Part shown: piece after piece, positions 14,119-47,212 of the stretch
Layout of the letters: the number at the start of each line of letters is the position of its first letter
How positions within the stretch are numbered: position 1 is the first letter of the stretch
Source: Bacteroidales bacterium
GTDB taxonomy: Bacteria; Bacteroidota; Bacteroidia; Bacteroidales; F082
NCBI GenBank assembly: GCA_016291135.1
Contig: JAEFAE010000003.1
Location: forward strand, 84,516 to 148,515
Length of the DNA stretch: 64,000 bases
Direction: 5' to 3'
The notes under the pieces: model-generated
Told to the model about the DNA's origin: nothing
What the model saw: the letters and a program-made list of their open reading frames with translations, nothing else
Databases searched by the model: none
Program-made: the position numbers and the translations under genes

Positions 14119-15468
14119 ATGAAAAAGTTCTTCCTATTTGCAATGCTGCTGATGGCAACGGCTGCCATGAATGCAGCGACCACACCGAAAGCCATGCTCG
14201 ATGGGGATTCCACCTTCTACATCGAAATCGCGCCCCGCATTCCGCATGGAGTCGTCCTCACCGAACCGACGGAGTTCGCCATGGCCGGAGAGCGTGTATC
14301 TATTCTCGTCGATCCGGAAAACGGCTATCAGCTGCTGTGGGTCAGTGTGACCAAGCAGGGCGACCAGAGCCAGACCGTTCCGGTCAACAACATGGCCTTT
14401 ACGATGCCTCAGTTTAACGTCTATGTCGATGCGGCCTTTGGCGTGATTGGGAATGGTCCGGTCATCAATGGCCAGATTGCGGCCCCCGCGGCCATTTGTG
14501 CGGGAAGCGCCCTTGTCCTGACTCCGCCTGAGGTTACCGGTGCCACACAGACGCAGTGGCAAATCTCCTCGGACAAGAACTTCACCTCTTACGAGGTGTA
14601 TACCAACCAACCCCTCGGCCGCAGCTACAATGGGTGGAAGCTCCGTTTTATGGCTTCCAACAGCGCCGGTACGGTCTATAGCAACACGGTCACCATCACG
14701 GTCAACAACCTGGGTGACTTGAGCCTCACGGGTGACTTGAGTGCCTGTACCCGTCAGGAAAGCAACTATGCGGTTGCAGGTGCCAGCAACGTGACGTATT
14801 CTTGGGAAGTGACAGACGAAAACGCCACCATCGAGGGGACGGGCAAATCCGTCAAGATCCTGTGGGGTACTGCCGGACGCCAAGTGGTGACGGTCACCGT
14901 TGAGGATACCAAGATCGGTTGTAGCGAGACCCTCGAGATGCAGGTGGCCGTACAGTCGTTCATCAAGGATACCGACCTGAACAACATCGTGGCCAAGAAA
15001 CACGAAGGCAAGGAATACATCCTGATCTATCCCAACCCCAAGGATTCCCATTATCGCTACCAGTGGTTCAAGGACGGTGAACCGATCCAAGGTGCCACCG
15101 GTCAGTATTACTATCCGGAGCGCGGCTTGGAGGCGGGCGCCTACCAAGTCTATATCAGCTTCAATACCGACGACAACGGCAACCTGATTTGCGGTGCCTT
15201 CACTCCGGTGTTCAACCTGACTCCCGAGCGCTCGGCTTTCCAGATCCAACCCAACCCGTCGGAAACCGGCCAGGAGCTGATCCTTGAGGCCGACATCGAA
15301 GGGGAGGCCTTCTTCACGGTCTTCACCCTTGACGGCAGAATGGTCTTCCAACAGGCCGTTTCGGGTCAACAGCCCACCGTCCAGCTTAACCTGGCCAAGG
15401 GTCTCTATATCGGTCGTCTCAGCCAAGGGGACGCCTCCGAGCAAGTAGCCAAGATTGTCATTAGATAA
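14119..15468 (+). CDS. Secreted Ig-like repeat protein with a T9SS C-terminal sorting domain
   Basis: 449-aa ORF with a signal peptide (MKKFFLFAMLLMATAAMNAATT). The last ~75 aa (FQIQPNPSETGQELILEADIEGEAFFTVFTLDGRMVFQQAV...LAKGLYIGRLS...KIVIR) fit the Por/T9SS type A CTD pattern. Confidence 0.7.
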   Translation: MKKFFLFAMLLMATAAMNAATTPKAMLDGDSTFYIEIAPRIPHGVVLTEPTEFAMAGERVSILVDPENGYQLLWVSVTKQGDQSQTVPVNNMAFTMPQFNVYVDAAFGVIGNGPVINGQIAAPAAICAGSALVLTPPEVTGATQTQWQISSDKNFTSYEVYTNQPLGRSYNGWKLRFMASNSAGTVYSNTVTITVNNLGDLSLTGDLSACTRQESNYAVAGASNVTYSWEVTDENATIEGTGKSVKILWGTAGRQVVTVTVEDTKIGCSETLEMQVAVQSFIKDTDLNNIVAKKHEGKEYILIYPNPKDSHYRYQWFKDGEPIQGATGQYYYPERGLEAGAYQVYISFNTDDNGNLICGAFTPVFNLTPERSAFQIQPNPSETGQELILEADIEGEAFFTVFTLDGRMVFQQAVSGQQPTVQLNLAKGLYIGRLSQGDASEQVAKIVIR

Positions 15469-15511: not shown

Positions 15512-15826
15512 ATGGAAGATTTCTTTTTATTCTTGAGGTACAAGAACAAAACCATCAAGTTCAAAGTCACCGACCCCAACACGGATCTTGAAGTGCTGAT
15601 GACCAACCTTCGCAAGGCTGTTGACAACACGGGAACCCGTATCTTCGACCTGCCCGAGATGATCGACTATGTTCCTACCGAGTATTTCTTCGGCAAGAAG
15701 GACGAGACTACAGGCCGCGACATCATTTTGCAGCCCAAGATCGGCAAGACCAAGAAGACCTTGCTCGACTACAACGTCAAGCCGGGCGACACCCTCGAAA
15801 TCATCTCAGACCCCATCGCGGGTTAA
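15512..15826 (+). CDS. Ubiquitin-like (beta-grasp) protein ending in Gly-stop, copy 1
   Basis: 104-aa ORF ending ...GDTLEIISDPIAG followed directly by TAA. It lies immediately upstream of an E2-like gene and in the same operon as the E1, JAB and RING proteins. By my hand alignment it shares 61 of 104 identical residues with the equal-length paralog at 34097-34411. Confidence 0.7.
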   Translation: MEDFFLFLRYKNKTIKFKVTDPNTDLEVLMTNLRKAVDNTGTRIFDLPEMIDYVPTEYFFGKKDETTGRDIILQPKIGKTKKTLLDYNVKPGDTLEIISDPIAG

Positions 15827-15860
15827 TTAACGGATTGTGGTACCTTAATACGTACGCCTT

Positions 15861-16463
15861 ATGCAAATCATGGAATCAGCAAGGGAGATCGACCAGTACA
15901 AACAGAACCGCTATGTGGGACGGAACCGTCGTCTGATGCACGAATGGTCCGCCATCGACCAGCGTTTCAAGGACGATCCCGACATCAGCTACATCATCCG
16001 TAAACGCAATCCTGAGAACCTGCCCACCCAATATGAGATTGTCTTCAAGGTGAAGTCGTTCTGCAACATCGAGGAACCGGACGAGAACGGGCTCTGCAAG
16101 CCGGTGACGGCCGACGAGTTCCGCATGAAGATCACCATCCCGAACAACTATCCGGCGGTCGACAGCAAGCTGGAGTTCAAGTTCATCACCAAGGACGACC
16201 AGGGCAACGAGATCCCGCATCCTTGGCATCCCAACATCCGCTTCTACGGCGACTTTGCCGGTCGTGTGTGCCTCAACACGCCTGCCTGCGGTACCTTTAC
16301 CGACCTGGCATGGTATGTCGATCGCGTGATGTCTTATCTCAAATACGAGAAATACCACGCCTTGAACACGCCTCCCTTCCCGGAGGACAACAAAGTGGCC
16401 GAGTGGATCCTTGAACAGGCGGAACCCAACGGCTGGATTGAACAATTAAGAAACGAAAAATAA
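15861..16463 (+). CDS. UBC-fold E2-like ubiquitin-conjugating enzyme
   Basis: 200-aa ORF containing PWHPNIRFYGDFAGRVCLN. This is the HPN motif (16227-16235) followed by the candidate catalytic Cys (codon 16269-16271) at the spacing seen in eukaryotic E2s (HPN-x(n)-G-x-[IV]-C-L). Confidence 0.75.
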   Translation: MQIMESAREIDQYKQNRYVGRNRRLMHEWSAIDQRFKDDPDISYIIRKRNPENLPTQYEIVFKVKSFCNIEEPDENGLCKPVTADEFRMKITIPNNYPAVDSKLEFKFITKDDQGNEIPHPWHPNIRFYGDFAGRVCLNTPACGTFTDLAWYVDRVMSYLKYEKYHALNTPPFPEDNKVAEWILEQAEPNGWIEQLRNEK

Positions 16464-16470
16464 CAATGCC

Positions 16471-17649
16471 ATGAAAAAAATCGCTTTAATACTGATCGCT
16501 TTTCTGCTGCCTGCAATCGCATTTGCGCAGTATGAGGTAACCGTGTCCGACGAGGGCCCGACCGACTATACGCTTTCCATCCCGGGTTACAACGCCAAAA
16601 TCCCGGCAGCCACCATGCATATGCGGTTCGAATATGAACCCGAAACCGAAACGATCCTGATCCGCCTGGGCAGTGGCTCCGCTGCGCCCGACTACGACAA
16701 GATCTGGCTGCCTCAACATGAATTCACCTATAGCGAGATGGGTTCCTACATGAAGAACCGTGGGGTGAAGTTCAGAAAGGCAAGCACCCTGGTCGACCAG
16801 GAGAACTTCCTCAACCTTGAAAGCAGGACCATCGCCGCCTCCATCGATTGCCAAGGCATGACGTTCAACGGCAACTATGACCTGAAGTCCAAAAAGAGGG
16901 TGAAGAAGCAACTCGACTACCAGATGGTGCCGCTTGACGGAAAAATGGAACTGCAGCTCCGCTTCAAGGTGGCTCCGCGTACGAGCCTCATGAAGCTTAC
17001 GTTGCACAACCCCATGCCGATGAACCGTACCGGAAGCAAGGGGACGGTGGCATTTGTGGCCGATGACGTTACCATCAACATCAAGCTCGAACGTTGCGGA
17101 TCGGTGCAGGATCTGGTCCAAACCGCCCGCGAATATGAAGCCATGTTCCGTGTGGCCGAGGCTAAGATCGTGGATGAGCTGAAATACAGCCCCAATACCA
17201 AGAAGGCCTACCGTGACTTCTTCCTCAACATGATCGATGCCGTCGACATGGACCGTTTGGAGACGGCTTCCTGCGAAGAGGTGCGTGACAGCTATGACCA
17301 TATCCAGGACATGCTGAGCAAGATCAAGGGAGACAGCAAGCCCGATAACGGCGGAGGCGGAAAGGGAAACAGTGGAAACAGCGGCAACAGCGGCAACAGC
17401 GGCGCGGTCTCATGCGACGTGAACGCCCTCGATGCGGAAGTGAAATCCACCACCAGCAAGATCAACAACATCATCAACGAGTGGTCGTTGGCCGGCGATG
17501 CCGCTACCAAGAAGGAGAAAAAAGCGGCCTTCGACGCGGTGGTCAAGGCTTTTGATGCCAAGCTGAACAGCCTTCCTGCAGGTTGCAAGGACAAGCTCAA
17601 CGCCAAGCAGCTGAAAAAGTATGAACAAGCCAAGAAACTGATAAAATAA
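16471..17649 (+). CDS. Periplasmic or secreted protein, T6SS-module component of unknown function
   Basis: 392-aa ORF with a Sec signal peptide (MKKIALILIAFLLPAIAFAQ, no lipobox Cys). It has a Gly/Ser/Asn linker and a Lys-rich helical C-terminal domain. It is paralogous to 28931-30082; both share the C-terminal ...KK.AFD.VVK..DAK.N.L...C..KL....LK.YE.AKKLIK. Confidence 0.6.
   Translation: MKKIALILIAFLLPAIAFAQYEVTVSDEGPTDYTLSIPGYNAKIPAATMHMRFEYEPETETILIRLGSGSAAPDYDKIWLPQHEFTYSEMGSYMKNRGVKFRKASTLVDQENFLNLESRTIAASIDCQGMTFNGNYDLKSKKRVKKQLDYQMVPLDGKMELQLRFKVAPRTSLMKLTLHNPMPMNRTGSKGTVAFVADDVTINIKLERCGSVQDLVQTAREYEAMFRVAEAKIVDELKYSPNTKKAYRDFFLNMIDAVDMDRLETASCEEVRDSYDHIQDMLSKIKGDSKPDNGGGGKGNSGNSGNSGNSGAVSCDVNALDAEVKSTTSKINNIINEWSLAGDAATKKEKKAAFDAVVKAFDAKLNSLPAGCKDKLNAKQLKKYEQAKKLIK
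17365..17403 (+). repeat. In-frame 9-nt tandem repeat encoding (GNS)4G
   Basis: GGAAACAGT GGAAACAGC GGCAACAGC GGCAACAGC GGC, inside the linker of the 392-aa periplasmic protein. Confidence 0.85.
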
Positions 17650-17655
17650 TCTGTC

Positions 17656-18432
17656 ATGAACCGACTATTCCGTGGATGTTTTTTGCTGGCGCTGCTGATT
17701 CTGCTGGCTCCGGTACGGCTGTGGGCCCAGGATGAGGAGATGGCCGAATTCGTCAGGGGCGAACTGGACACCTATTATCGGGAGCTGGTCAAGCTCGACA
17801 AGCAGATTGTGACCGCCGAGGATGCGGAGCGGTATGAGACCCGCGTCAAGAACCATCTTAGACTGGTGGAATCGTGCTACAGCGACTACAGCGAAGTCAT
17901 CCGTTACGACAAGAAGCTCTACTCCTTATATGAGAAATACACCGACTATCACCAGGAACTGGAAAGAAGGATGGAATCCCTGAAGGAGGAGCAGGCGCGG
18001 CAAGAGAAATACGACAAGGTCAACACGAAGCTGAACCGTTACATGGTGACCCTTGCCGAGCTCGAAGAGGCCGGAAACCGTTGCGTCGCCAACAAACGCC
18101 TCGACTCGCTCAACATTATCAAGAAGCAGGCCGAGGAATGCTATGTGGACGAAGCCATGGTGGACTATGGCGCCAACCGCGACTTCATCGAAGAGGACGA
18201 GGACCTTGCCTTGTTGTGGAAAAAACTCAAGGAAACCTATGGGCGCATCTCAAACATGCAGATTGTCAAGACGTCGATTGACATGGTCACGATTCTTGAG
18301 ATCGTTGGCATTGTCGCAGCCGTTGTCCTCATCTTTACGATGATCTCCGGTAAGATCAAGGCGGCCAAGCTCACCAAACCGCAAAAAGAGAAGAAACCCA
18401 AGAAACAAGAAGAAGACATCCCTTCAATCTGA
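17656..18432 (+). CDS. Bitopic coiled-coil protein: signal peptide, periplasmic coiled coil, C-terminal TM and Lys-rich tail
   Basis: 258-aa ORF. N-terminal signal is MNRLFRGCFLLALLILLAPVRLWAQ. It has long heptad-like charged segments, the TM helix MVTILEIVGIVAAVVLIFTMISG, and the tail KIKAAKLTKPQKEKKPKKQEEDIPSI. Paralog at 34431-35189. Confidence 0.6.
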   Translation: MNRLFRGCFLLALLILLAPVRLWAQDEEMAEFVRGELDTYYRELVKLDKQIVTAEDAERYETRVKNHLRLVESCYSDYSEVIRYDKKLYSLYEKYTDYHQELERRMESLKEEQARQEKYDKVNTKLNRYMVTLAELEEAGNRCVANKRLDSLNIIKKQAEECYVDEAMVDYGANRDFIEEDEDLALLWKKLKETYGRISNMQIVKTSIDMVTILEIVGIVAAVVLIFTMISGKIKAAKLTKPQKEKKPKKQEEDIPSI

Positions 18433-18437
18433 GTATT

Positions 18438-20018
18438 ATGAAACGAAGAATCATTACCATACTAAGCCTGATTTTGGTGTGCTTCGCGGGTGTTATGGCC
18501 CAGCAGCCGACGGCCACTTTCGACGGCAACAAGCTGAGCATCGTGGTGCCCGAAGGGTATCTGGAGTTGGAGCGCAGCGCGATTGCCAATGCGGCGGTTC
18601 GTGACTGCATCAAATGGGAGGACGAAACCGCTTTCTTCATGTCGCAACCCGAACCTTACCTGCTTTATCCCGAGGGGCTCGCTGCCAACGAACCGCTGCA
18701 AATCGAAGGCAAGTTTAACGGTGAGCCGATCACCCTGCAGGTGGAGATGAAGGAACCCGCCCCGCAAAAGCCCGTCGATCCCGAAGGGGGAGATCCCTCC
18801 AAACGGAACCTGTTCCTGTATGGCGGACTGGGCCTGTTGGTGTTGGTGCTACTGACATTGGTGTTGCTCTTGCTGCGCAAGAAGAAAACCAACAAGGAAC
18901 CGGAGAAACCTTTCGATCCCAGCGTCATCTCGGTCATCACCGACGAATCGGTCCAATACGAACATGGGTTGAAACATGTCAAGGAGCATTTGGCGGACTA
19001 CCTCGTGTTCGACATGGACATGGTCTATGCCGACACGGCAGTCAACAAGGTGTATTTCAGCACCGCCCTCATCAAGAAGCTCTACGATTTCTTCAACAAC
19101 TCGCTGGAAACCGATGGACGCACCAACGAGACGGGCTGCTTCATCTTGGGTTGTTGGGATCGGGAGCCGGGCAATGCCGGCCGCTACGACATCAGCCTTG
19201 AGTACATGGTGGAGCCCGGCGATGACGCCGACTTTGGCGAATACAGCCTGAACTTCGGCAAGAAGATCAGCATCAACATGGCCTCGGTGATTGCCAACCT
19301 GGGCGAGAAGTCGAAACGCGACTATGTGCTCACCTGTTGGATGCACTCGCACCCCGGACTGGGGCTCTTCCTCTCGAACCAGGACCTCATCGTCCAGAAG
19401 CAGCTGACCTATTCCGATCACCGCAACCGCTTGTTGGCGCTCGTCATCGACACCAACACGCCCAAGCTGAAGCTGGGATTCTTCACGGCTCAAGCCCATG
19501 GCGAAATGAACAACAAGGAAGCGGTGAAGCGCTGGTTCTCCTTCGAGGAGATCAACCGTCAGGCCCGCGACATGAACCGAAACCATGCCCCCAAGGAAGA
19601 CCTGCTGTCGGAGTTTGTGGCCGATGCCGATTACTATACCCTCGACCTGAACGATTCCGAGCTTCCTCATCTCGGCCTGGCCGCCCATTGCATCAACCAG
19701 ATCGACAATGCCATCTATTCCTGCAACAAGGGAATTGTGGGTTACTTCTTCGGTGAGGAGGAGAACGGCTATCTCAAGGTGGGTTGCTGCCTGCCGTATG
19801 AGAACGAGGAACGGGTGGGTTGCCTGATCTACGGCGACGACCTCGATCGGGCCAAGTTGGTTGCCTATGCCTCGGACCTTGCCGGATGCCGGTTCTTCCT
19901 CAACTGCACCTCCGACGACAAGGCACACGTATGGTCTCGCAAGGGAGACGCTTTCGAGCCGGTTTGCGACACCACATTGACACAAATGAAAGAATGGATT
20001 AGAAGAAAACGCGTTTAA
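18438..20018 (+). CDS. Membrane-anchored JAB/MPN (JAMM) metallopeptidase, candidate deconjugating or processing enzyme
   Basis: 526-aa ORF with a signal peptide, ~130 aa periplasmic segment and the TM LFLYGGLGLLVLVLLTLVLLLL. The cytoplasmic domain has an upstream Glu (NETGCFILG) and an intact JAMM motif WMHSHPGLGLFLSNQD (H-x-H-x7-S-x2-D, 19344-19385). Confidence 0.75.
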   Translation: MKRRIITILSLILVCFAGVMAQQPTATFDGNKLSIVVPEGYLELERSAIANAAVRDCIKWEDETAFFMSQPEPYLLYPEGLAANEPLQIEGKFNGEPITLQVEMKEPAPQKPVDPEGGDPSKRNLFLYGGLGLLVLVLLTLVLLLLRKKKTNKEPEKPFDPSVISVITDESVQYEHGLKHVKEHLADYLVFDMDMVYADTAVNKVYFSTALIKKLYDFFNNSLETDGRTNETGCFILGCWDREPGNAGRYDISLEYMVEPGDDADFGEYSLNFGKKISINMASVIANLGEKSKRDYVLTCWMHSHPGLGLFLSNQDLIVQKQLTYSDHRNRLLALVIDTNTPKLKLGFFTAQAHGEMNNKEAVKRWFSFEEINRQARDMNRNHAPKEDLLSEFVADADYYTLDLNDSELPHLGLAAHCINQIDNAIYSCNKGIVGYFFGEEENGYLKVGCCLPYENEERVGCLIYGDDLDRAKLVAYASDLAGCRFFLNCTSDDKAHVWSRKGDAFEPVCDTTLTQMKEWIRRKRV

Positions 20019-20027
20019 TTGTTTGAT

Positions 20028-22379
20028 ATGAAACGACTGTCATTATTAACCCTATTACTCATATTTTTGTTCCAGTCCGCCAGGGCACAGGTGGGCATGG
20101 AATTCGGTCCTGTTGAATCCGACAACATGACCCGTTTCGTCGATTTCAAGATGATGAAAGACGGCAACAAAGTGCCTTATTTCGGCCTGACGGCCGACGA
20201 CTGCCGCTGTTTCGAGCTTGTGAACGGCGATACCGTGGTGCTGTATGTGGACAGCCTGGTGGACATCAGCAGCCGCAAGCTGGTCTCCAAGAACCTGACC
20301 ATCGTCATCCTGGCCGACCAGGGCATGATGCTCAGCGATGCCGACTACCTGAAACTGAAGGAAGCCATCGTGTCGTTTGTGGACGCCTTGCCGGAGTACG
20401 TCAAGGTATACATCGCCATGATGGGAACCGACGTCACCGAAACCGAGCGCGTCTATCCCGGCGAAAGCATCCGCTCGTACGTGCGTCGCGACGAGCTGGT
20501 GGAGCAGTCGGACGAGGAGAAGTCGATCTATGCCGCCATCATCTCCAAAATCCAGGAGATTGCCAACCTCGACGAGGACGACTGCTTCTACTCGGATGTG
20601 CCGCACAACCGTGAACTGACGGCCGATACGGAGTCGGACAAGATCCTCTTTGTGCTTTCGGGCGCGGTGGACGAGGATGAGGACGAGGATTTCTATCGCG
20701 ACAAGCTCCTCTTCAACAACCCCGACTATCTGGAGATCCCCGACCAGCTCAAGGCCATCTACTGCATCTATTTCGGCGATGAGCTGGAAGAGGACATGGC
20801 CAATGAGTTCAAGTTCATCTGCCATCGTACCCCCGAAGGCAAGTTCTATCCCCACTATGCGGTCGATTCGTTGAAATACATGCTGTTGGGTGCCATCGAC
20901 TCCATCGCCATGGACTACCGTATGTATTACACAGTGGGAGAGAAGGTGACCTATAACGGCCAACCCTTGGCCCTGTTCCTCGACATCGACCGCGCCAAGG
21001 CCCATGGCGAGAAGAACTATTCGTTCGGCTCCACGCTGGCCCCGATCACCCTGGCTCCTGCCGAGGCAGCTGGTGGCAAGGGCGGGTATTCCGTGCTGCT
21101 GTTCGGACTCCTGCTGGGCATCGCCTTCATCGCCTTGGCCTATCTGGTCATGCAGTATCTCGTGCCCTGGCTCCAATACCAGCTCTTCAAGAAGAAATAC
21201 GTCAAGAAGTTCAGCCCCAACGCCATCCAGAAAGATGGCAAGGATGTGGTGCTGCAACAGTGCTACTATTGCAAGGACGACTTCCAAGAAGGCGACATGA
21301 TCGTCACCAAATGCAAGCATACCGTCCACTGGGAGTGCTGGGAGGAAAACCATGACCGTTGCCCTGAATATGGCCTCAACAGTTGCAAGGAAGGCATCTA
21401 CTTCTATAATCGCAACCACCTGGCCGACCCGCGCAATTCGCCGTATTTCACCTCATGGCTGATCTACGGCCTGGCCGGCGGCCTCATATCCTGGCTGTTG
21501 TTCAAGCTGATACCCACCATCCCGTTCTTCGGAAAGCTGATCACTTGGATCGTCAGCCTGTTCCATGGGGAGAACACCCCGAACGTGGCCCCCGAGTTTG
21601 TCCAGAAGATTGCTCCTCTATTGATGTGCGGCCTGATCCTGGGCTTTGTGATCACTTTCCTGTTCAGCTTCCTGATCGATTTCCGCAGAAAGACCGCGAA
21701 GACCATCTTGCTCATGGTGGCTCGCGCCTTTGGCAACGCCATCATCGGTTTCCTCGCTTTCCTGCTGGGTGCGGTGGTCATCATCGCCTTGGGCAAGTCG
21801 AGCAACTGCTGGTGGATCGACTGGGTGCCGTGGCTCTTCTTTGGCTGTGCCATCCCGTGGCTGCTCTCGTTCAAGACCGACATCAAGTTCAAGGAAGCCT
21901 TCCTGGGTGGCTTGATCTCCGTGGTGTTGAGCTTTGTGGCCGTTTACGGACTGGGTTCCTCGGTGCCGGTGATGGGTTTGTTCGCCTTCATGATCTACGC
22001 GGCCGGTCTGGGTGCCTCGATCGCGGTGGTCCACTATACTTCGGAGAACTACTACCTCCATATCGAAGGCCCGACCAAGGAACGCGACATCGCCATCTAC
22101 AAATGGATGAACGTGGCGGGTGGATCCAACCATGTCACCATCGGCCGCTCGCCAAACTGTGTCATTGAGATGAACTGGGATCCGAGCGAAGAGATCCGCG
22201 ACAAGCAGGTGGAGCTGTACATCGACAACGACCATCCGTACTGCCGCGCCTTGACCGAAGGCACCACCTTCGGCAACGAGCAGCGGGTGCTCAAGGAGGG
22301 TGACTCGATCCTCTTGGTCCATGGCAGCTGTTTCACCGTGGGCAATACGAAATTCACTTATATTGAAAAAGATAAATAA
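20028..22379 (+). CDS. Polytopic membrane protein: periplasmic vWA-like domain, cytoplasmic RING-H2-like zinc finger, 6 further TM helices, C-terminal FHA-like domain (E3 candidate), copy 1
   Basis: 783 aa from the ATG at 20028; the track ORF begins at an upstream TTG. Signal peptide is MKRLSLLTLLLIFLFQSARAQ. The segment LTIVILADQG...KILFVLSGAVDED has a vWA-like pattern without a MIDAS motif. TM1 is YSVLLFGLLLGIAFIALAYLV. Eight metal ligands lie at 21261-21396: C-x2-C-x13-C-x-H-x2-H-x2-C-x7-C-x7-C (CYYCKDDFQEGDMIVTKCKHTVHWECWEENHDRCPEYGLNSC). About six more hydrophobic helices follow. The C-terminus VTIGRSPNCVIEM...LLVHGSCFTVGNTKFTY is FHA-like, with the GR present but no obvious S-x-x-H. Confidence 0.65.
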   Translation: MKRLSLLTLLLIFLFQSARAQVGMEFGPVESDNMTRFVDFKMMKDGNKVPYFGLTADDCRCFELVNGDTVVLYVDSLVDISSRKLVSKNLTIVILADQGMMLSDADYLKLKEAIVSFVDALPEYVKVYIAMMGTDVTETERVYPGESIRSYVRRDELVEQSDEEKSIYAAIISKIQEIANLDEDDCFYSDVPHNRELTADTESDKILFVLSGAVDEDEDEDFYRDKLLFNNPDYLEIPDQLKAIYCIYFGDELEEDMANEFKFICHRTPEGKFYPHYAVDSLKYMLLGAIDSIAMDYRMYYTVGEKVTYNGQPLALFLDIDRAKAHGEKNYSFGSTLAPITLAPAEAAGGKGGYSVLLFGLLLGIAFIALAYLVMQYLVPWLQYQLFKKKYVKKFSPNAIQKDGKDVVLQQCYYCKDDFQEGDMIVTKCKHTVHWECWEENHDRCPEYGLNSCKEGIYFYNRNHLADPRNSPYFTSWLIYGLAGGLISWLLFKLIPTIPFFGKLITWIVSLFHGENTPNVAPEFVQKIAPLLMCGLILGFVITFLFSFLIDFRRKTAKTILLMVARAFGNAIIGFLAFLLGAVVIIALGKSSNCWWIDWVPWLFFGCAIPWLLSFKTDIKFKEAFLGGLISVVLSFVAVYGLGSSVPVMGLFAFMIYAAGLGASIAVVHYTSENYYLHIEGPTKERDIAIYKWMNVAGGSNHVTIGRSPNCVIEMNWDPSEEIRDKQVELYIDNDHPYCRALTEGTTFGNEQRVLKEGDSILLVHGSCFTVGNTKFTYIEKDK

Positions 22380-22396
22380 TTGAAAATCAATATATT

Positions 22397-23692
22397 ATGA
22401 AAAAGTTATTTCTTATCCTAACGATGACGGGCCTCGCCATGACGGCCATGGCCCAGTCCCAACTTTCGACGGTCCGTGGCAAGACCAAGGACGGAAAGAA
22501 CCTCAAGGTCCAGTACTACAAGGGGACGGTCGAAGACGTGATCCAGTCCGTCAGCTACGATTTGGTGGACGAACTTCAGGCCAAGTCCAACAAACTCCAG
22601 GCAGACCTGGATGCGGCCAAAAAGGAGATCAAGAACCTGCAGGCAAGCGGCGGTGGGGCAGACGCTAACGAGTTGAAGAACCTCCGCAAGAAGGTGAAAG
22701 ACTACGAGAAGGAGAATGCCACCCTGACCAAGCAAATCAAAGAATTGAAAAATCAACTGGGCGGAGACGTGGTTGAGCCGTCCTCCGACAACGACCAGGC
22801 CGTGGCCGAAGCCCAGCGTCAGGTCGCCGAAAAGGACAAGGCCATTGCCGAGCTCAATACCGTGTTGGATGCCTGCAATGCCAAGGTCAAGGACATGGAA
22901 CGGCAGATTGGCGAGCTGAAAGGCGCCGTCCGTCCGCCCGCGAGTCCGGTGATCGGCGCCACCTTCGGGATGGGGCCTGCCTTCATCGGCAAGAGCACGC
23001 CGGACTATTGGGCCAAAAACGTGAAGCCGGCCATCTTGTTCGAGGTCTATTACGGCACGGGCAACCTGACCCCGAGCTTCCCGCTTTCGGTGGAGGCTGG
23101 ATTGGGCTTCCGCAACTTCAAGATGTCCGCTACATTGCCTGAATACACCACCGTCATCACGGGTGACGACAACGACGGCGATCCCTTCAAGGCCCACTAC
23201 AGCTTCAACAACCTGGAGGAGCGCTTGGGATTGACCTACCTTGACATTCCGGTGCGTGTGTGTGTGTCGCAACCCCTCAAGGACCGTGTCACGGTCTATG
23301 CCAAGGCGGGCTTGACCCCCTCCATCAAGGTGGGATCCAACTTCAACGGCAGCGGCACCTACAGCCTGTTCGGTTATTATCCGCAATGGGATGTCAACCT
23401 TCAGGACATTGAACCCCTTGGCTTTGGAGAGGACCTCGAGTGCTACGACGGTTTTACGCCTGAAGTGAAGTCCTTCGTCCTTTGGGGCAACCTCGCCTTT
23501 GGGGCCTACGTGCCGTTCAATGGCAGCCCCATCGAGCTGAATGCCGGCGTGAAGTTCGACTTCCCGTTGACTTCGTTCGGAACCGCCGCTACGGGCGACT
23601 TCATCCCGGGTACCCATGCCGCGGTGCTCGGCAACGGAGGCAAGGCCACCATTATGAGTCTGCAACTCGGCGTCGTTTACAACTTGAAATAA
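22397..23692 (+). CDS. Outer-membrane beta-barrel protein with an N-terminal periplasmic coiled coil
   Basis: 431-aa ORF with a signal peptide (MKKLFLILTMTGLAMTAMAQ). About 150 aa are coiled coil (KLQADLDAAKKEIKNLQ...KQIKELKNQL...). The C-terminal half has alternating-hydrophobic strands, including the LTYLDIPVRV motif typical of small Bacteroidota porin-family barrels. Confidence 0.55.
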   Translation: MKKLFLILTMTGLAMTAMAQSQLSTVRGKTKDGKNLKVQYYKGTVEDVIQSVSYDLVDELQAKSNKLQADLDAAKKEIKNLQASGGGADANELKNLRKKVKDYEKENATLTKQIKELKNQLGGDVVEPSSDNDQAVAEAQRQVAEKDKAIAELNTVLDACNAKVKDMERQIGELKGAVRPPASPVIGATFGMGPAFIGKSTPDYWAKNVKPAILFEVYYGTGNLTPSFPLSVEAGLGFRNFKMSATLPEYTTVITGDDNDGDPFKAHYSFNNLEERLGLTYLDIPVRVCVSQPLKDRVTVYAKAGLTPSIKVGSNFNGSGTYSLFGYYPQWDVNLQDIEPLGFGEDLECYDGFTPEVKSFVLWGNLAFGAYVPFNGSPIELNAGVKFDFPLTSFGTAATGDFIPGTHAAVLGNGGKATIMSLQLGVVYNLK

Positions 23693-23700
23693 TTCCGATC

Positions 23701-24909
23701 ATGGAAGAAATCGAAATCAAAGAATGGGGTAAAGAAGTGTTCGACCTCTTGTCGTGGTACAAGATGGACGTGGTCAAGAACGCCAAGGTGATGGTGGTCG
23801 GTGCCGGTGCGCTCGGCAACGAGGTGTTGAAGAACCTCGCCCTGTTTGGCGTAGGCAACATCTATATCGTGGACTTCGACACCATCGAATACACCAACTT
23901 GACCCGTTCGGTGCTCTTCCGCGAGGAGGATGCCGACAAGGGCTATTTCAAGTCGGAGGTGGCTGCCCGGAAGTTGCGTGAGATCAACCCCAACATCAAT
24001 GTGCAGTATATCTGCGGCAAGCTCAACACCGATGTGGGCTTGGGACTCTACCGGAAGATGGACGTGGTGGTCGGCTGTCTCGACAGCCGGCTGGCCCGTC
24101 TCCAGCTGAACCGGCTCTGCATGCGTGCCGACATCCCTTGGGTGGAGGGCGGCATGGAGAACCTCACCGGCAACGTCAGGGTCTTCAAACCCGGAGAGAA
24201 CTGCTACGAATGCGGCTTGACCGAAAACGCCAAGCAGAACATCTTCCAGCAGCTCTCCTGCGCTGGAGTAGCCCACCGCAACGAGAACGTGGGGCGTATT
24301 CCCACCACGCCGGTCATCGCCTCGATCATCGGCGCCGTTGAGACCCAGGAGGCCATGAAGCTTCTCCACAAGGAGGAGGTGCAGTCGGGCGTGTTCTCGA
24401 CCCTCATGGGCAAATGGTTCCACTATGAGGGCATGCACAACCACATCTCGGTGTATGACTCCCAAGCCTACTTTGAGGACTGTCCCTCGCACGAGTGCTG
24501 GAACGACGTGGTCAAGATCGCTGCCTTGAGCGCCGATACCCGGATCAACGATGTGTTCACCCTGATCCAGGAGACCCTGGGCGTGAAGGAAGTGGAGATC
24601 AACCTCCGCAACGACAAGTTTGTCGACATCATCGTTTCCAAGAACGACAACCAGCGTTTCACGCCCATGTTGCCCGAGTCCAAGATCTCGGACTACATCG
24701 ACTCGAACTACGACCTCTATACCCGTTCCCGTTCCGACCTTAACCAAAACGCCTACGAGAACATCAACGAGGAGTTCCCGTACCAGCGGCTCACCCTCCA
24801 CGAAATCGGCATCCCCTATTACGACGTCATCGAAGTGACCACCGAAAACGGGGTGTTCCATGTGGAGCTTACAGCGGATGAGGCACGTTTCCCGATCATT
24901 GTCAAATAA
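23701..24909 (+). CDS. ThiF/MoeB-family E1-like activating enzyme with a C-terminal extension
   Basis: 402 aa from the ATG at 23701. The track ORF 23482-24909 overlaps the upstream gene in another frame and is over-extended. Motifs: nucleotide loop VVGAGALGNE; DFDTIEYTNLTRS (arginine-finger region); NCYEC; and a crossover-loop Cys in QQLSCAGVA (codon 24259-24261), analogous to TCVEAGV of MoeB. About 130 aa lie beyond the adenylation domain and could be a UFD-like domain. Confidence 0.75.
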   Translation: MEEIEIKEWGKEVFDLLSWYKMDVVKNAKVMVVGAGALGNEVLKNLALFGVGNIYIVDFDTIEYTNLTRSVLFREEDADKGYFKSEVAARKLREINPNINVQYICGKLNTDVGLGLYRKMDVVVGCLDSRLARLQLNRLCMRADIPWVEGGMENLTGNVRVFKPGENCYECGLTENAKQNIFQQLSCAGVAHRNENVGRIPTTPVIASIIGAVETQEAMKLLHKEEVQSGVFSTLMGKWFHYEGMHNHISVYDSQAYFEDCPSHECWNDVVKIAALSADTRINDVFTLIQETLGVKEVEINLRNDKFVDIIVSKNDNQRFTPMLPESKISDYIDSNYDLYTRSRSDLNQNAYENINEEFPYQRLTLHEIGIPYYDVIEVTTENGVFHVELTADEARFPIIVK

Positions 24910-24917
24910 CTGTTGCC

Positions 24918-25691
24918 ATGTCTTATTTTGACCAAAACAGCCTTCAACAAGAGCTTTGCGCCGAACAGGTGCTTGCGGTGCATTTCCCCGACATCAAGGA
25001 GTGGACGGCCAACTATGGCAGCTTCTTCTCGAGGAACTACACGGGCGACTTGAAGGAATGTAACCCCAGGGATAAAAAGGTTTCCCTCTCCCGGAACGGC
25101 ATCTACGACATCCTTCCCGAGAAGATGTTCTTCGACCCTAACGAGTTGCGGAACAAGGAAAGCCGGGCCTTTGCACAACGGGTGGCCGAACTCTATGAGG
25201 AGGAAAGGAACATCCAGAAATATTTCCAGCCTTTCGACTCTTATTTCTTTAACCGGTCGCTAAACATCCGCTTGAATGTCAATAGGTTGGTGGACGATAA
25301 GGTCGAGATGATGCTCCGGCTGCTTTTCGACTACGACCTTCATGCGGAGAAGAATCCCTATATCCGCCTGCTGGCGCCTATGTTGCTTCAAGTAACCGAG
25401 TTGCGGTCCGACTTCGACCGGCTGTCGACGATGCTCGCCGCTATCATCGATTGTCGCGTGGACTACAAGATGCCGACCCAGGACCGTGTGCTCTTTACGG
25501 TGCATAAGTTGCAACTGAACAGCCGTGAGTACGCCGATTTCATGTTGCTGTTGAAGCCGTTGTTCGACTTTGTACAAGAGTGGTTCGTCCCCATGGAGAT
25601 GGACTGCGGCTATCAGGTGAAAGACTATCAGCAGCCTTTCGTGCTTTCCGACGATCGGGCTTTGGTATTGGACTACAACACACAGATTTGA
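24918..25691 (+). CDS. Conserved T6SS-module protein, positional candidate for TssG
   Basis: 257-aa ORF paralogous to 37547-38329 (HFPDIKEWTANYGSFFSRNYTGD... versus HYPFQREWIAHHKGIFTRNYADD...). It directly precedes the TssK-like, TssE and TssF genes in both modules. No other TssG candidate is present, and I recognise no TssG motif. Confidence 0.35.
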   Translation: MSYFDQNSLQQELCAEQVLAVHFPDIKEWTANYGSFFSRNYTGDLKECNPRDKKVSLSRNGIYDILPEKMFFDPNELRNKESRAFAQRVAELYEEERNIQKYFQPFDSYFFNRSLNIRLNVNRLVDDKVEMMLRLLFDYDLHAEKNPYIRLLAPMLLQVTELRSDFDRLSTMLAAIIDCRVDYKMPTQDRVLFTVHKLQLNSREYADFMLLLKPLFDFVQEWFVPMEMDCGYQVKDYQQPFVLSDDRALVLDYNTQI

Positions 25692-25715: not shown

Positions 25716-26603
25716 ATGAATACAGATATCAGAATTGATTGGCGGTCGGGCATGGAGATCACTCCACAGACCTTTATCGACATGGAGAACAACATTTCAG
25801 AGAACCGCTTGCTGGTTCGCAAGATGATTGCCGCCAAGTCGTTCGGCGTCATCCCCAGAACGAAGTTCTCCATCAGCCATGAGCTGCTTAACGGAAGTCT
25901 GGTCCTCAAGCAGATCACCTGCGACGTGTTGCTGCCTGCCGGTCAGGTGGCCGTGGTGGAGACCAAGGCGCCCATCACCCTGGCCATCCCCGACAAGGAA
26001 GCCGATGAGCTCTACCTCACCCTAGAGGTGGGCGACCATCTCGTCACCTTTGAACGGGACGGCGTGCCGCATGTGGTCAACGAATACAAGTTCGACTTCA
26101 AGGCGCTTCCCGATGTGAGGACCCAGCAGCCGTTGCTCAAACTGGTCCGTGCCAACGAGGCTTGGACTGTTTATGAGAACTATGTCCCTCCGGTCATGAC
26201 GGTCAGGACTTCCGTGCCGTTGCTTGAGAAGCTCGACGCCTTGAAGCAATCGGCCGACAAGATCGTTACCCACGAACATGCCGACCTGATGGAAGACCCG
26301 GTGCTGGTGATGTTGCTCATCGACCAGCTGATGACCTTCTCGGCCGACGACTCCTCACGTGAGTTGGTGCTGCTGTGCAAGCGTATCGCCACGGCCTTGA
26401 GCTATGCCGTCATGAAACACAAGGTGGAGTTGCCCGCACCCAATATCATGGATGTGGAACCGTATCTGAATGCGTTCCAGCATTTTTTGGCCGACATCGC
26501 CGTCGCCATGAACGACCTGCAACCCAAGGTAGTGGAAGTGAAGGCCCCGGAACCCGAACCGGAACCGGAACCCGAACCGGATGAGTGGCTCCCGATGATT
26601 TAA
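25716..26603 (+). CDS. tssK: Short TssK-like baseplate protein with an acidic (PE)n tail
   Basis: 295-aa ORF. The N-terminus IRIDWRSGMEITPQTFIDMENNISENRLLVRKM resembles the TssK start (V.WsEGmfL.PQHFQQ.drY...). It is about 150 aa shorter than canonical TssK and ends EVKAPEPEPEPEPEPDEWLPMI. Confidence 0.5.
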   Translation: MNTDIRIDWRSGMEITPQTFIDMENNISENRLLVRKMIAAKSFGVIPRTKFSISHELLNGSLVLKQITCDVLLPAGQVAVVETKAPITLAIPDKEADELYLTLEVGDHLVTFERDGVPHVVNEYKFDFKALPDVRTQQPLLKLVRANEAWTVYENYVPPVMTVRTSVPLLEKLDALKQSADKIVTHEHADLMEDPVLVMLLIDQLMTFSADDSSRELVLLCKRIATALSYAVMKHKVELPAPNIMDVEPYLNAFQHFLADIAVAMNDLQPKVVEVKAPEPEPEPEPEPDEWLPMI

Positions 26604-26622: not shown

Positions 26623-27102
26623 ATGTTCATCAGAAACCCTTTGCAACTGCGTTATCCCATTGTGGATCTAGACGGTAGCCAACTGAAAGGCTCTATCGAC
26701 GCCTTCTTGCGCCTGCTGATCGCCTCCAACAAGTACGACAGCATCGCCGATCAGGAGTTCGGATTCTGTCTGGAGGACTTCCGTTTCGAAGGCTTCAGTT
26801 CGGAACGGGCTGAGTTTTTGGAGCGGAAGACCGTGCCGCGAGACCGGTCGGAGAATACCGAATTGGCTGAGATCCGCAGTCCGTTGTATTCCAAAAGACT
26901 CGTCGGAAACAGCAAAAACGCCGACACGTTTGCCCGTGAATTGAAAAAGAGCATCGAGCGTTATGAACGAAGGCTCCGCGAGGTACAGGTGAACACGGAC
27001 TTCCAGAAAAACGGCCGGATCCTCCACATCATCGTGACCGGGAAGATCAACAATGCCGCCAATACCCTTTATTTTAACGAGTTTAATGTTGATGTTTGGT
27101 AA
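26623..27102 (+). CDS. tssE: Baseplate wedge protein TssE (gp25-like), copy 1
   Basis: 159-aa ORF directly upstream of tssF. It has a gp25/GPW-like start (LKGSIDAFLRLLIASNKYDSIADQEFGFCLEDFRFE). Paralog at 39230-39691. Confidence 0.6.
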   Translation: MFIRNPLQLRYPIVDLDGSQLKGSIDAFLRLLIASNKYDSIADQEFGFCLEDFRFEGFSSERAEFLERKTVPRDRSENTELAEIRSPLYSKRLVGNSKNADTFARELKKSIERYERRLREVQVNTDFQKNGRILHIIVTGKINNAANTLYFNEFNVDVW

Positions 27103-27117: not shown

Positions 27118-28872
27118 ATGACACAAGAAGATTACGATATTCAGGTACAGGTGGACAGCCTGATGCAGAAAGTCCTGGAGACCTGGAAACGCGAAGGGAA
27201 ATGGGACGGCAGCAACCCCAATTCGCCCTTTTACGGTTTCGAGAAAGACCCCTTGCTCCGTATCCTGATCACCGCCTTCGTATATCAGACCAATGGCCTG
27301 AAGGCCGATATCCAGAACTTGGAACGGGACGTGGTGAGCGATTTCCAAAACAGTATTCTGCCGTACCAGATCACCCAGGCCATTCCGGCCATGACCTTGA
27401 TCCAGACGGCCAAGAGCCCCGATGAGCCCGGCGACGTGTATTGCGACGAAACGACCGCCTTCCTGGTAAAGAAAGAATCGCTCCGCGTCAAGGAAGTGTT
27501 TCCTTTCCATCCGCTCTTTAAAGCCAAGATCATCGGGATGACCGTGAATGGTGTCACCAAGATTGCCAGCGACAAATGGAACGTCAACATCGACGTCGCC
27601 GACCAAAGCGCCGACCTCTCGAATTTCGGTTTCCTGATTACCGGCCTGCGCTACAGCAACGTGAATGTTTATTGGAACAACGAGAAGCTGCCCCTGATCC
27701 AACCCTGGGAGTTCGACCGCTTCCCCAAGATGGCCTGGTTCAACGACGCCAACATCGTCTTCAACAAGTCGATGCTCTTTGGCGGTGAAAGCAAATGGTA
27801 TGACCTCTGGGCCCAGATGAATGTGAACTACTACATGGTGGCTCCGACCTTCCGTCGTCCGATCGACTCCGATATGATCAATTTCGTGTTCGAGTTCTCG
27901 GGGATGTCGAAACCCTTCAATTTCGAAGCGGAAAACCTGGCCTTCAACTGCTTCCCGGCCGTCAACGTGCTGAAAAAAGACTTCCAGCTCTCCGGAGCGG
28001 AACCCATCGTCAAACTGACCAATGAAACGGATTACACCGATGAGGATGCCGAGCCGGTCAAAGGGGTCCGTTCTTCCGTGGATGAGAACAACCACGAAGA
28101 CTTCTTTATGAACCTGGTCATGAATCCGAATTCCTCGATCGACGACCTGGATCGCTTTAGCATCCGTCATTTCGGCTGCGAGCGGTTCAATCTGAATGCC
28201 TTGGTACGTCTGGCCAACGATCTCAGCTTGCGCTACGAGTCGGATTTCTACGCCTTCCAGAAGGTGCACAAGATGCAGAACACCGACAAGATCCGTCGTC
28301 TCAACATCGTACTGAAGGATGTGTTGGGGGTGATCCTGAACAACAAGGAGCCGCGTTCCGGCGTATATGCCATCCTGAAACATGGCAAGGGGGAGGGTAA
28401 TCCTGCGCCGATCCATCTCTCCGGTCTGTTCACCGACGGTGCCTACGCCAACGACATCGATGTGTTCAGCGACGTTTCGGGACCCAAGTGCTTCGACAAG
28501 AAGGAAACCAAGATGCTGTACAAGACCTTTGGCGGACGCGATGAGGTGGTCGATCGGGAGGAGAAGGCCATGTTGGCCAAGTACTATGCCCGTACCAACG
28601 ACCGTATCGTGACACGTGCCGACCTAAAGGCCTTCTGCAACCGTTATTTTGTCCAAATCGGTTATGCGGACGCCTTGCTCGACGTGAACAGTGTCATCGA
28701 ACGCCAAGAGGACGGCTTGTCCCGTCAGCACATCACCGTCCAGCTGAAAAACGAATTCGTGCGTGACCGCGAAGACGTGCCCATGATTGTCGACCGCTTG
28801 CGCAAACTGGTCGAGGTGCATAGCATGACCCACCTGCCGATCGTGGTGGATTACCTGGCGGTTGTGAGTTAA
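27118..28872 (+). CDS. tssF: Baseplate protein TssF, copy 1
   Basis: 584-aa ORF. The N-terminal KDPLLRILITAFVYQTNGLKADIQNLERDVVSDFQNSILPYQITQAIPAMTLIQ follows the TssF pattern (dP.v..LlE.fAyL...l...ld...p.....ll..l.P.yl.P.PS). Its size and its position after tssE also fit. Confidence 0.7.
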   Translation: MTQEDYDIQVQVDSLMQKVLETWKREGKWDGSNPNSPFYGFEKDPLLRILITAFVYQTNGLKADIQNLERDVVSDFQNSILPYQITQAIPAMTLIQTAKSPDEPGDVYCDETTAFLVKKESLRVKEVFPFHPLFKAKIIGMTVNGVTKIASDKWNVNIDVADQSADLSNFGFLITGLRYSNVNVYWNNEKLPLIQPWEFDRFPKMAWFNDANIVFNKSMLFGGESKWYDLWAQMNVNYYMVAPTFRRPIDSDMINFVFEFSGMSKPFNFEAENLAFNCFPAVNVLKKDFQLSGAEPIVKLTNETDYTDEDAEPVKGVRSSVDENNHEDFFMNLVMNPNSSIDDLDRFSIRHFGCERFNLNALVRLANDLSLRYESDFYAFQKVHKMQNTDKIRRLNIVLKDVLGVILNNKEPRSGVYAILKHGKGEGNPAPIHLSGLFTDGAYANDIDVFSDVSGPKCFDKKETKMLYKTFGGRDEVVDREEKAMLAKYYARTNDRIVTRADLKAFCNRYFVQIGYADALLDVNSVIERQEDGLSRQHITVQLKNEFVRDREDVPMIVDRLRKLVEVHSMTHLPIVVDYLAVVS

Positions 28873-30082: not shown

Positions 30083-30141
30083 GAAGACAGAAATCAGGAG
30101 ACCGCATACAGAATACAAAAACAATATAAGGAGATATTACT

Positions 30142-31302: not shown

Positions 31303-31326
31303 GGGAAACGATAGGAGACCTTTGCC

Positions 31327-33627: not shown

Positions 33628-33653
33628 ACCATTCACTTATAACTCTTGATTAA

Positions 33654-34034: not shown

Positions 34035-34049
34035 TAATCCAAATTTTTT

Positions 34050-34057
34050 TATATTTG
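34050..34057 (+). promoter_or_regulatory. Candidate internal -7 box (TATATTTG) upstream of Ubl copy 2
   Basis: Exact TAnnTTTG, 40 nt upstream of the ATG at 34097. A TTG lies at 34031-34033 (about 16-nt spacing), in a 62-nt AT-rich gap. Confidence 0.4.
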
Positions 34058-34096
34058 TGGTGTGTAATGGAATGAACTAATACAATACCACAAGCC

Positions 34097-34411: not shown

Positions 34412-34430
34412 TCCTTAACTCGATACAGCC

Positions 34431-35189: not shown

Positions 35190-35204
35190 AAGAAAGGATT
35201 GCGC

Positions 35205-39219: not shown

Positions 39220-39229
39220 TTGAAAAGCC

Positions 39230-39691: not shown

Positions 39692-39696
39692 ACAGC

Positions 39697-41340: not shown

Positions 41341-41365
41341 CAGTCATATTTGGCGCTTTTTTACC

Positions 41366-42202: not shown

Positions 42203-42212
42203 CGGTTGATAT

Positions 42213-44630: not shown

Positions 44631-47212
<2,582 letters not shown>

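Follow-up and report, generated by a model that had tools for sequence, protein, structure and literature searches.

Type VI secretion systems (T6SSs) of Bacteroidota have been described in the architectures GA1-GA3 (Coyne et al. 2016, PMC4714493), and the literature from 2016 to 2026 recognises only these architectures and the TssNQOPR set of envelope proteins. In the canonical T6SS-iii, TssK of the baseplate is contacted by TssN, a protein with five transmembrane (TM) helices, and the authors of that work have proposed that the two dock through a ubiquitin-like cytoplasmic domain of TssN (PMC10781749). A 2026 review of T6SS accessory factors makes no mention of ubiquitin, and reviews up to 2024-2026 name no accessory genes of a ubiquitin-like kind. 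Bacterial operons that combine an E1, an E2, a JAB peptidase, a ubiquitin-like protein (Ubl) and 'rare' RING E3s are cited as predicted and uncharacterised. A study by Burroughs, Iyer and Aravind that appeared in Mol Biosyst in 2011 reportedly proposes conjugation of YukD-like Ubls, and to our knowledge no bacterial cascade with a RING E3 has so far gone beyond prediction to characterisation. Here we describe a locus in which both kinds of system occur together. It occupies positions 296-41340 of a stretch of 64,000 nucleotides (nt), hereafter called the window, from contig JAEFAE010000003.1 of an uncultured, rumen-type Bacteroidales bacterium (assembly GCA_016291135.1), and it joins a T6SS-iii-like system with the predicted bacterial RING-type Ubl cascade in a way that is previously undescribed within the literature searched. 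That search found no publication joining a Bacteroidota T6SS with Ubl, E1, E2 and RING proteins; the 2011 study lay outside its reach.

The locus, as delimited by the listing of open reading frames and by profile scans, is a single array of genes all encoded on the + strand, and it is a T6SS-iii-like (Bacteroidota-type) type VI secretion locus (Table 1). When the contractile core of the Bacteroidota T6SS-iii was checked, TssC, TssD, Phage_base_V, the ClpV domains and gp25 were matched, and TssK weakly; TssF and TssG were assigned by position (TssF also by size), and TssB by position and by identity to homologues. An earlier interpretation of this DNA, made from the nucleotide sequence without database searches (the sequence-only reading), had placed clpV-tssBC-hcp-vgrG upstream and tssK/E/F downstream of a ubiquitin-like cassette, and the profile matches of ClpV, TssC, two Hcp proteins, VgrG, TssE and TssK agree with this layout. 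All five proteins that it had singled out, namely the Ubl, E2, JAB, RING-like E3 candidate and E1, were found on the + strand at the positions it had given. It had described five genes with short gaps; the gaps are indeed short (5-43 nt), but the interval 15512-24909 contains eight tightly packed genes, with three genes for envelope proteins interleaved among the five. The component set is predicted to be a complete Ubl/E1/E2/RING/JAB system that forms part of the T6SS operon. We propose that it operates as a membrane-anchored switch of Ubl conjugation and deconjugation, which controls the assembly of this T6SS-iii variant by modifying a putative target, and we put the probability of this explanation at roughly 55%.

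The modifier, Ubl1, had been noted as a Ubl of 104 amino acids (aa) with a DPIAG-stop ending, and structure prediction has borne out its beta-grasp fold. The AlphaFold2 model (mean pLDDT 83.5) has as its top Foldseek matches in the PDB, all with probability 1.0, the UBL domain of USP15, SUMO, ubiquitin, BilA (8tyx) and the ubiquitin of Caldiarchaeum; no match was found in Pfam, YukD included. The terminal Gly is invariant among the homologs, and the C-terminal consensus across the loci surveyed below is ...DP[IFKL][AP]G, with the stop codon usually placed directly after the Gly. Four loci encode a tail beyond it, comprising an extra Gly and two residues in L015, L019 and L021 (AGG-LK/HK/TN) and two residues in L039 (PG-AK). 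Such C-termini would be the signature of a modifier that is conjugated and sometimes processed, and the AGG-plus-two-residue variants are predicted to need processing. The tryptic C-terminal remnant of the Ubl would comprise 14 residues, PGDTLEIISDPIAG.

The E2, which contains PWHPNIRFYGDFAGRVCLN, is weakly recognizable at the sequence level, with a sub-threshold match to Pfam UQ_con (E=0.003), and its family profile had no match among the PDB sequences, so that it was structure prediction that revealed the fold. The AlphaFold2 model made from 24 sequences (pLDDT 89.7) retrieved exclusively eukaryotic UBC E2 enzymes among the top 50 Foldseek matches, with no BilB within these 50, and H123-P124-N125 and Cys137 are invariant in two sets of homologs (15 and 24), in good agreement with the UBC fold and the catalytic Cys at codon 16269 proposed before. 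Two or three tandem E2 paralogs are found in the rumen-type loci L015, L019 and L021, together with one RING protein in each and, in L021, with two Ubl genes. The E1 has as its best PDB relatives the SUMO-E1 UBA2 and UBA1, with MoeB and ThiF ranking behind them, and the putative zinc ligands C169xxC172 and C262xxH265 as well as Cys188 are all invariant in 35 homologous sequences (residue numbers count from codon 23698, one codon before the true ATG at 23701). As far as sequence comparison goes the identification of the E1 is unambiguous, and the ThiF-type enzyme with a crossover-loop Cys at codon 24259, as previously suggested, is upheld by the ThiF match and by the conservation of this residue.

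The JAB protein is predicted to be an isopeptidase of the inner membrane. Its active-site residues E231, H303-x-H305, S313 and D316 are invariant among the homologs, its family profile matches Rpn11 and CSN5 (E=3e-8), and the best PDB match of the single sequence is the Rpn11 homolog of Caldiarchaeum (6fjv, E=6e-5). The JAMM active site is thus as intact as the sequence-only reading had claimed, although its 'HSHP-x7-S' is a slight miscount, the motif present being the canonical H-x-H-x7-S-x2-D. According to hydropathy, a single TM helix in the candidate E3, RING1, separates a periplasmic vWA-like domain (residues 26-358) from the RING, which lies in the cytoplasm and is followed by about six further TM helices and an FHA domain, also cytoplasmic; the RING proteins are the only multi-TM proteins of the locus. 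Eight putative ligands (C415, C418, C432, H434, H437, C440, C448 and C456) are invariant or nearly so and form the pattern C-x2-C-x13-C-x-H-x2-H-x2-C-x7-C-x7-C. Pfam zf-RING_2 was matched weakly but consistently, by 14 of the 14 family members tested (E<=0.01), Prok-RING_1 was matched below threshold, and VWA and FHA were matched in subsets of the family, the latter weakly at the single-sequence level. The best PDB matches of a profile of the RING region are the RING-H2 ligases RNF24, RNF126, RCHY1 and Hrd1 (E=0.008-0.4), with the ligands in register. The closest relatives of the RING protein, 76-93% identical, come from metagenome-assembled genomes (MAGs) of ruminants and from 'Candidatus Limimorpha'. 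The catalytic domains of the putative E3 and of the putative deubiquitinase (DUB) are both predicted to face the cytoplasm at the inner membrane, each protein possessing in addition a periplasmic domain; with this topology the two would carry out their reactions on the cytoplasmic side of that membrane while extending into the periplasm.

The association of the cascade with the T6SS was surveyed by searching a one-genome-per-species collection with the alignment of the RING family and by mapping the remaining genes with tblastn in the 10-kb flanks of 40 loci, which came from rumen and gut Bacteroidales MAGs, Alistipes, Parabacteroides and Bacteroides MAGs, and included two cultured carriers, Mediterranea massiliensis Marseille-P2645T and Caecibacteroides pullorum AN421. 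The Ubl, E2 and E1 were each found in 34 of the 40 loci, TssK together with TssE in 35, and x257, the cytoplasmic protein encoded between E1 and TssK, in 36; the missing genes fall on contigs cut by their ends, and every locus with sufficient flank has E1, E2 and Ubl beside TssK/E/F. Independent contexts seeded with the E2 gave the same picture, as all four are T6SS loci, one of them compact and extending from ClpV to TssK. The order of genes depends on the clade: in loci of the rumen type it is Ubl-E2-p392-p258-JAB-RING-OMP-E1-x257-TssK-E-F, while in loci of the Alistipes type it is E1-x257-TssK-TssE-TssF-Ubl-E2-p38x-p28x-RING, starting from a divergent promoter region. Despite these differences the Ubl genes are interleaved with baseplate genes. 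This conserved synteny rules out a chance co-location of the cassette and the T6SS, and the claim that the cassette is built into a T6SS operon has held across both series of loci. Since the arrangement is conserved across dozens of related genomes, the tagging probably controls assembly of the weapon.

Two Alistipes-type loci (L041 and L045) also encode, on the opposite strand about 0.1-2.5 kb upstream of E1, a PEGA-domain protein of about 460 aa and, beside it, a protein of 233-245 aa with a Pfam match to RRF (ribosome-recycling factor); both genes are divergent from the E1-baseplate operon and adjoin a PAAR-like gene.

A second set of genes (28931-41340), absent from the sequence-only reading, comprises Ubl2, RING2, two envelope paralogs, and baseplate and spike genes. 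The paralogous sets are 25-59% identical to each other, and the duplication is paired, as it includes Ubl, RING, p392, p258, x257, TssK, TssE and TssF, while E1, E2, JAB, OMP431, the sheath genes and ClpV are single-copy and common to both sets. The first gene of the second set had initially been labelled TssG1, a label that was rejected when the gene was recognized as a p392 paralog. The same two-set layout is found in MAG RUI549 (L009 and L022). The second set is an ancient paralogous one, and the locus appears to encode two alternative modules of membrane, baseplate and spike components.

Homologs of the cascade exist also apart from secretion systems. An exhaustive HMMER search with E<=1e-30 delineated a vWA-RING-TM-FHA family of 264 clusters (at 50% identity). 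Six distant members were sampled, two of which lie on short contigs that carry no context information, and four belong to free-standing cassettes with the order E1-Ubl-E2-(x)-JAB-RING, around which a distance of 10 kb holds no T6SS genes. Adjacent to them are SrfB/Virul_Fac genes in L046, a kinase and an FHA-FHA-ABC transporter in L049, and a Ser/Thr kinase and a TIR-WD40 protein in L050, from a Chitinophagales genome; L051 is a plasmid-like contig with Rep3 and ParA. Cassettes of this type were probably already predicted in the 2011 study of Burroughs, Iyer and Aravind, and the YukD-like Ubls described below fit the conjugation that this study reportedly proposed. The proteins of the four cassettes are 41-44% (E1), 31-34% (E2), 24-30% (JAB) and 22-24% (RING) identical to those of the window, but the JAB proteins, of 760-870 aa, are far larger, with a second small JAB in some loci. 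All four Ubls have short tails after the Gly, and Pfam YukD is matched strongly by that of L051 and faintly by that of L050; the window Ubl family aligns with them by hhalign with probability 73% and E=3e-5, the terminal Gly being in register. The RING proteins linked to a T6SS group as a single clade by neighbour joining, apart from the free-standing ones. Together, the free-standing homologous cassettes and the separate clades of RING proteins indicate that the T6SS version is a derived capture, in one clade of Bacteroidales, of an older mobile E1-(YukD-like) Ubl-E2-JAB-RING cassette present elsewhere in Bacteroidota. The T6SS linkage holds in all surveyed Bacteroidales loci with enough flank, but not in the Chitinophagales genome and the other contigs with free-standing versions.

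The neighbourhoods of the free-standing cassettes, with their kinases, TIR-WD40 protein, FHA-ABC transporter, SrfB/Virul_Fac and plasmid genes, also suggest a different explanation, in which the cascade is a conflict or defence module that is merely housed in the T6SS locus, co-located or co-regulated with it, and retains its ancestral function (e.g. anti-phage or envelope-stress immunity through the tagging of foreign or damaged proteins) without acting on T6SS parts. The Ubl systems of Bil and of Cap2/3 in the cyclic-oligonucleotide-based antiphage signalling system (CBASS) are indeed anti-phage. We regard this explanation as rather unlikely, since the genes are scattered among those of the baseplate, in two or more different orders, and never occur apart from them where the flank suffices, and since Ubl and RING have been duplicated jointly with a baseplate and spike set. 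Besides, PADLOC found no Bil model in the window, its only matches being Cap2-type 'E1-E2' matches to the adenylation domain of the E1. The genetic integration accommodates equally well a role in turnover or quality control, in which the Ubl would not gate assembly but label T6SS components that are spent or wrongly assembled (contracted sheath, baseplate, membrane complex), so that ClpV or a different AAA+ machine extracts or unfolds them, with RING, JAB, p392, p258 and OMP being structural parts of the envelope complex. ClpV is encoded in the same locus, and ubiquitin and Pup offer an analogy, as they direct substrates to AAA+ unfoldases; however, no ubiquitin-binding domain or other evidence ties ClpV to the Ubl, and we consider this role unlikely.

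It is very unlikely that the Ubl, or effectors tagged with it, are T6SS cargo, loaded onto Hcp/VgrG or delivered into target cells. This idea, the first part of which the sequence-only reading had raised as an alternative, draws on the position of the Ubl genes just downstream of VgrG, PAAR and effector-like genes in several loci, and on the ubiquitin homologue that Bacteroides fragilis secretes as a toxin, although by another route. However, conservation of the Ubl is high, at 84-99% identity in the rumen clade, as opposed to the variable, lower-GC effector regions, the E3 and the DUB are anchored in the inner membrane of the producer, and the Ubl is not fused to Hcp or PAAR. Sulfur-carrier chemistry of the ThiS/MoaD type with no protein conjugation, which membership of the E1 in the ThiF/MoeB superfamily might bring to mind, can be dismissed, as the locus also encodes an E2, whose HPN and Cys are invariant, together with the RING and JAMM proteins, which rules it out, the E1 is nearest to SUMO and ubiquitin E1s in the PDB, and no genes of thiamine or molybdopterin biosynthesis are located nearby.

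A membrane-anchored conjugation switch acting on the T6SS itself could work as follows. The C-terminal Gly of the Ubl would be adenylated by the E1, transferred to Cys188 as a thioester and then handed over to Cys137 of the E2, whereupon the membrane RING protein would bring the charged E2 to the envelope complex, where a T6SS component exposes a lysine on the cytoplasmic side. Possible targets are the RING protein, the envelope complex as such, or the baseplate with x257/TssK; the sequence-only reading had suggested spike, baseplate or membrane components. By conjugation, docking of the baseplate, and hence assembly of the sheath, would be switched on or off; alternatively, the output might be control of recycling. 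The context for this proposal is the contact of TssN with TssK in the canonical T6SS-iii, as against a locus in which profile searches detected no TssN/O/P/Q/R and the RING proteins are the sole polytopic ones. The JAMM peptidase would strip the Ubl for recycling and trim the short tails of some homologs, and the periplasmic vWA and cytoplasmic FHA domains would feed envelope or phospho-threonine signals into the switch. The two sets of Ubl, RING, envelope, baseplate and spike genes could then be two specificity units that choose between spike and effector sets.

We also entertain, as a doubtful elaboration, that covalent conjugation of the Ubl takes the place of the ubiquitin-like docking domain that is built into TssN, with the polytopic RING protein serving as the core of a new membrane complex and the two Ubl-RING pairs each licensing a different set of baseplate, spike and effectors. 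The RING protein would in this case ligate the Ubl onto itself or onto the baseplate, so that TssK/x257 can dock there, and after firing the JAMM peptidase in the membrane would dismantle this site. If this is true, a minimal 'ubiquitin code' would decide which weapon load gets assembled.

Several observations weigh against a switch of T6SS assembly. The target and the biochemistry of conjugation are only predicted. The sequence-only reading had proposed an eight-ligand RING-H2-like membrane protein, and its ligands are conserved and its membrane topology agrees, but the Pfam and PDB matches to RING domains are weak, and the last ligand pair is spaced C-x7-C, not C-x2-C, which is unusual; given these E-values and this pattern, the RING domain is likely but not proven. 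JAB and OMP431, which co-occur in 21 loci, are found only in the rumen-type clade and are absent from the Alistipes-type and horse-MAG loci, hence reversibility would not be universal. The free-standing cassettes that lack a T6SS imply that the ancestral function was not T6SS assembly. The survey was seeded with the RING family and covered a collection with one genome per species. Finally, no protein of the locus matched TssN/O/P/Q/R in Pfam and NCBIfam, a result of failed profile searches only, and these libraries may not model all five; nor did other membrane-complex proteins find a match in the same libraries.

Table 1. Genes of the type VI secretion locus in the window, with the evidence for each assignment.
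Position (nt)	Strand	Gene	Description	Evidence
296-2791	+	ClpV (TssH)	AAA+ ATPase	Pfam AAA_2 5e-57, AAA_lid_9, ClpB_D2-small
2900-3361	+	TssB candidate	Sheath	Position; 63-74% identical to the genes that precede TssC in L025 and L043
3427-4797	+	TssC	Sheath	PF17541 3e-102
4857-5249, 5329-5817	+	Hcp (two genes)		TssD PF17642 3e-27 and 4e-18
5845-8229	+	VgrG1		Phage_base_V 7e-16
8243-9406	+	DUF4280/PAAR-like	387 aa, N-terminal extension of about 280 aa; likely specialised effector	
14119-15468	+	PKD-domain protein	Signal peptide, C-terminal sorting domain of the type IX secretion system (T9SS)	TIGR04183 4e-10, above its cutoff
15512-15826	+	Ubl1	Beta-grasp modifier, 104 aa, end ...DPIAG-stop	AlphaFold2/Foldseek
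15861-16463	+	E2	UBC fold, HPN 123-125, catalytic Cys137 (codon 16269)	Invariant residues, model
16471-17649	+	p392	Secreted/periplasmic, N-terminal signal sequence	Same-position homologs in 13 loci
17656-18432	+	p258	Signal sequence, periplasmic coiled coil, C-terminal TM anchor	Hydropathy
18438-20018	+	JAB	Predicted inner-membrane JAMM isopeptidase; 24-126 periplasmic, TM 127-145, cytoplasmic JAMM domain	Hydropathy, motif
20019-22379	+	RING1	Candidate E3, signal peptide-vWA-TM-RING-H2-~6TM-FHA; probable ATG 20028	Pfam, ligands, hydropathy
22397-23692	+	OMP431	Signal peptide, coiled coil, outer-membrane beta-barrel	OMP_b-brl 6e-4, OMP_b-brl_2 5e-3, weak
23701-24909	+	E1	ThiF-type, GAGALGN, C169xxC172...C262xxH265 zinc site, Cys188 (codon 24259)	ThiF 2e-53
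24918-25691	+	x257	Cytoplasmic, between E1 and TssK	Present in 36/40 loci
25716-26603	+	TssK1	Baseplate	TIGR03353 TssK 3e-8
26623-27102	+	TssE1 (gp25)	Baseplate	GPW_gp25 1e-6, above Pfam cutoff
27118-28872	+	TssF1 candidate		Position and size only
28931-30082	+	p383	p392 paralog (28% identity), opens second set	Sequence comparison
30142-31302	+	Hcp fusion	386 aa, C-terminal extension of about 250 aa; likely specialised effector	Profile scan
31327-33627	+	VgrG2		Profile scan
33654-34034	+	PAAR-like DUF4280		Profile scan
34097-34411	+	Ubl2	104 aa, DPIAG-stop	59% identical to Ubl1
34431-35189	+	p252	p258 paralog	Sequence comparison
35199-37547	+	RING2		33% full-length identity to RING1; Prok-RING_1 8e-5, zf-RING_2 5e-4
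37547-38329	+	x260		About 32-33% identical to x257
38326-39219	+	TssK2		About 32-33% identical to TssK1
39230-39691	+	TssE2 candidate	Second baseplate set	
39697-41340	+	TssF2 candidate	Second baseplate set	

The remaining genes of the locus belong mostly to its spike and effector regions. The genes for VgrG1 and the PAAR-like DUF4280 protein are followed by several genes of lower G+C content (GC) with no assigned family, presumably effector and immunity genes, and GC drops to 0.45-0.50 in the 4-14 kb and 30-32 kb regions, compared to 0.54. The PKD-domain protein encoded directly upstream of Ubl1 has homologs of 449-1103 aa at the same position in L019, L021 and L044, and it may be a cell-surface component that the type IX system delivers to the type VI locus. 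The x257 protein found no match in Pfam or the PDB, even with 15 homologs, and it is a candidate TssG judging by position and size. Terminator-like sites in the window occur at chance level (18 found vs 18.0 expected), and a sigma-70 promoter scan is not meaningful for Bacteroidota. Downstream, 41327-42202 had first been taken for TssG2 and was rejected, as it encodes a NagK/BadF-like kinase, which marks the end of the locus. The housekeeping boundary that starts there (41327-50035) includes also MiaA (IPP transferase), an enzyme of the poly(A) polymerase/CCA-adding family (PolyA_pol and HD) and GyrA, as well as a second ClpB-type chaperone on the minus strand (44630-47212). No integrase or conjugation genes were found in 41327-50035, and within the window there is no sign of the integrative and conjugative element context of the GA1/GA2 type.

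For secretion biology, the locus represents an undescribed architecture of Bacteroidales T6SS beyond GA1-3, with envelope proteins unrelated to TssJLM and, as far as detectable, to TssNQOPR. Ubl conjugation would be an unprecedented kind of T6SS accessory system within the literature searched. For the study of bacterial ubiquitin-like systems, the cascade is linked here to a well-defined machine whose output, as Hcp secretion and killing, can be measured, has a few candidate substrates encoded next door and occurs in the cultured species Mediterranea massiliensis and Caecibacteroides pullorum, so that the role of bacterial E1-E2-RING systems becomes directly testable.

Comparison with known systems places the locus outside of each of them. 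The likeness to Bil and CBASS drawn in the sequence-only reading turns out to be an analogy only. Bil (BilABCD) resembles the window in its bacterial set of Ubl, E1, E2 and JAB for conjugation of the Ubl to a target, and BilA is among the structural matches of Ubl1, but Bil lacks both an E3 and membrane anchoring and resides in defence contexts, whereas here the JAB is membrane-anchored, a RING E3 is predicted and the E2 belongs to the classical UBC enzymes; the T6SS context and the PADLOC result likewise rule out membership in Bil. Type II CBASS with Cap2/Cap3 is ruled out by the separate E1 and E2 genes and by the lack of a CD-NTase in the window. The E1-E2-RING-Rpn11-Ub operon of Caldiarchaeum subterraneum and other archaea resembles the window in its five-component, eukaryote-like cascade with a RING E3 and a JAMM peptidase of the Rpn11 type; however, the archaeal system is soluble and is not associated with a secretion machine, while the putative E3 and DUB described here are polytopic or bitopic membrane proteins. 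The T6SS locus H1 of Pseudomonas, with TagQRST-PpkA-Fha1-PppA, is a functional analogy only: it also combines a reversible post-translational switch with an FHA domain and envelope sensors, but its switch is threonine phosphorylation and not Ubl conjugation, and no kinase or phosphatase for such a switch is encoded in the window.

The predicted bacterial RING/E1/E2/JAB/Ubl operons possess the same components, and all five proteins of the window are homologous to those of the free-standing cassettes. The difference is that in the window they are dispersed among T6SS genes and accompanied by extra envelope proteins, that Ubl, RING and envelope genes have been duplicated with the baseplate set, and that JAB has been lost in some clades. 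The T6SS-iii with TssNQOPR (Bongiovanni et al. 2024, PMC10781749) has in common with the locus TssC and Hcp of the Bacteroidota families, VgrG, ClpV and TssE/K, and also a group of five envelope proteins whose genes adjoin those of the baseplate, one of these proteins being a multi-TM protein of the inner membrane with a cytoplasmic domain. In the locus described here TssN/O/P/Q/R are not detectable, and the envelope includes instead a protein with predicted RING-H2, FHA and vWA domains and a JAMM peptidase, to which an E1, an E2 and a free Ubl have been added.

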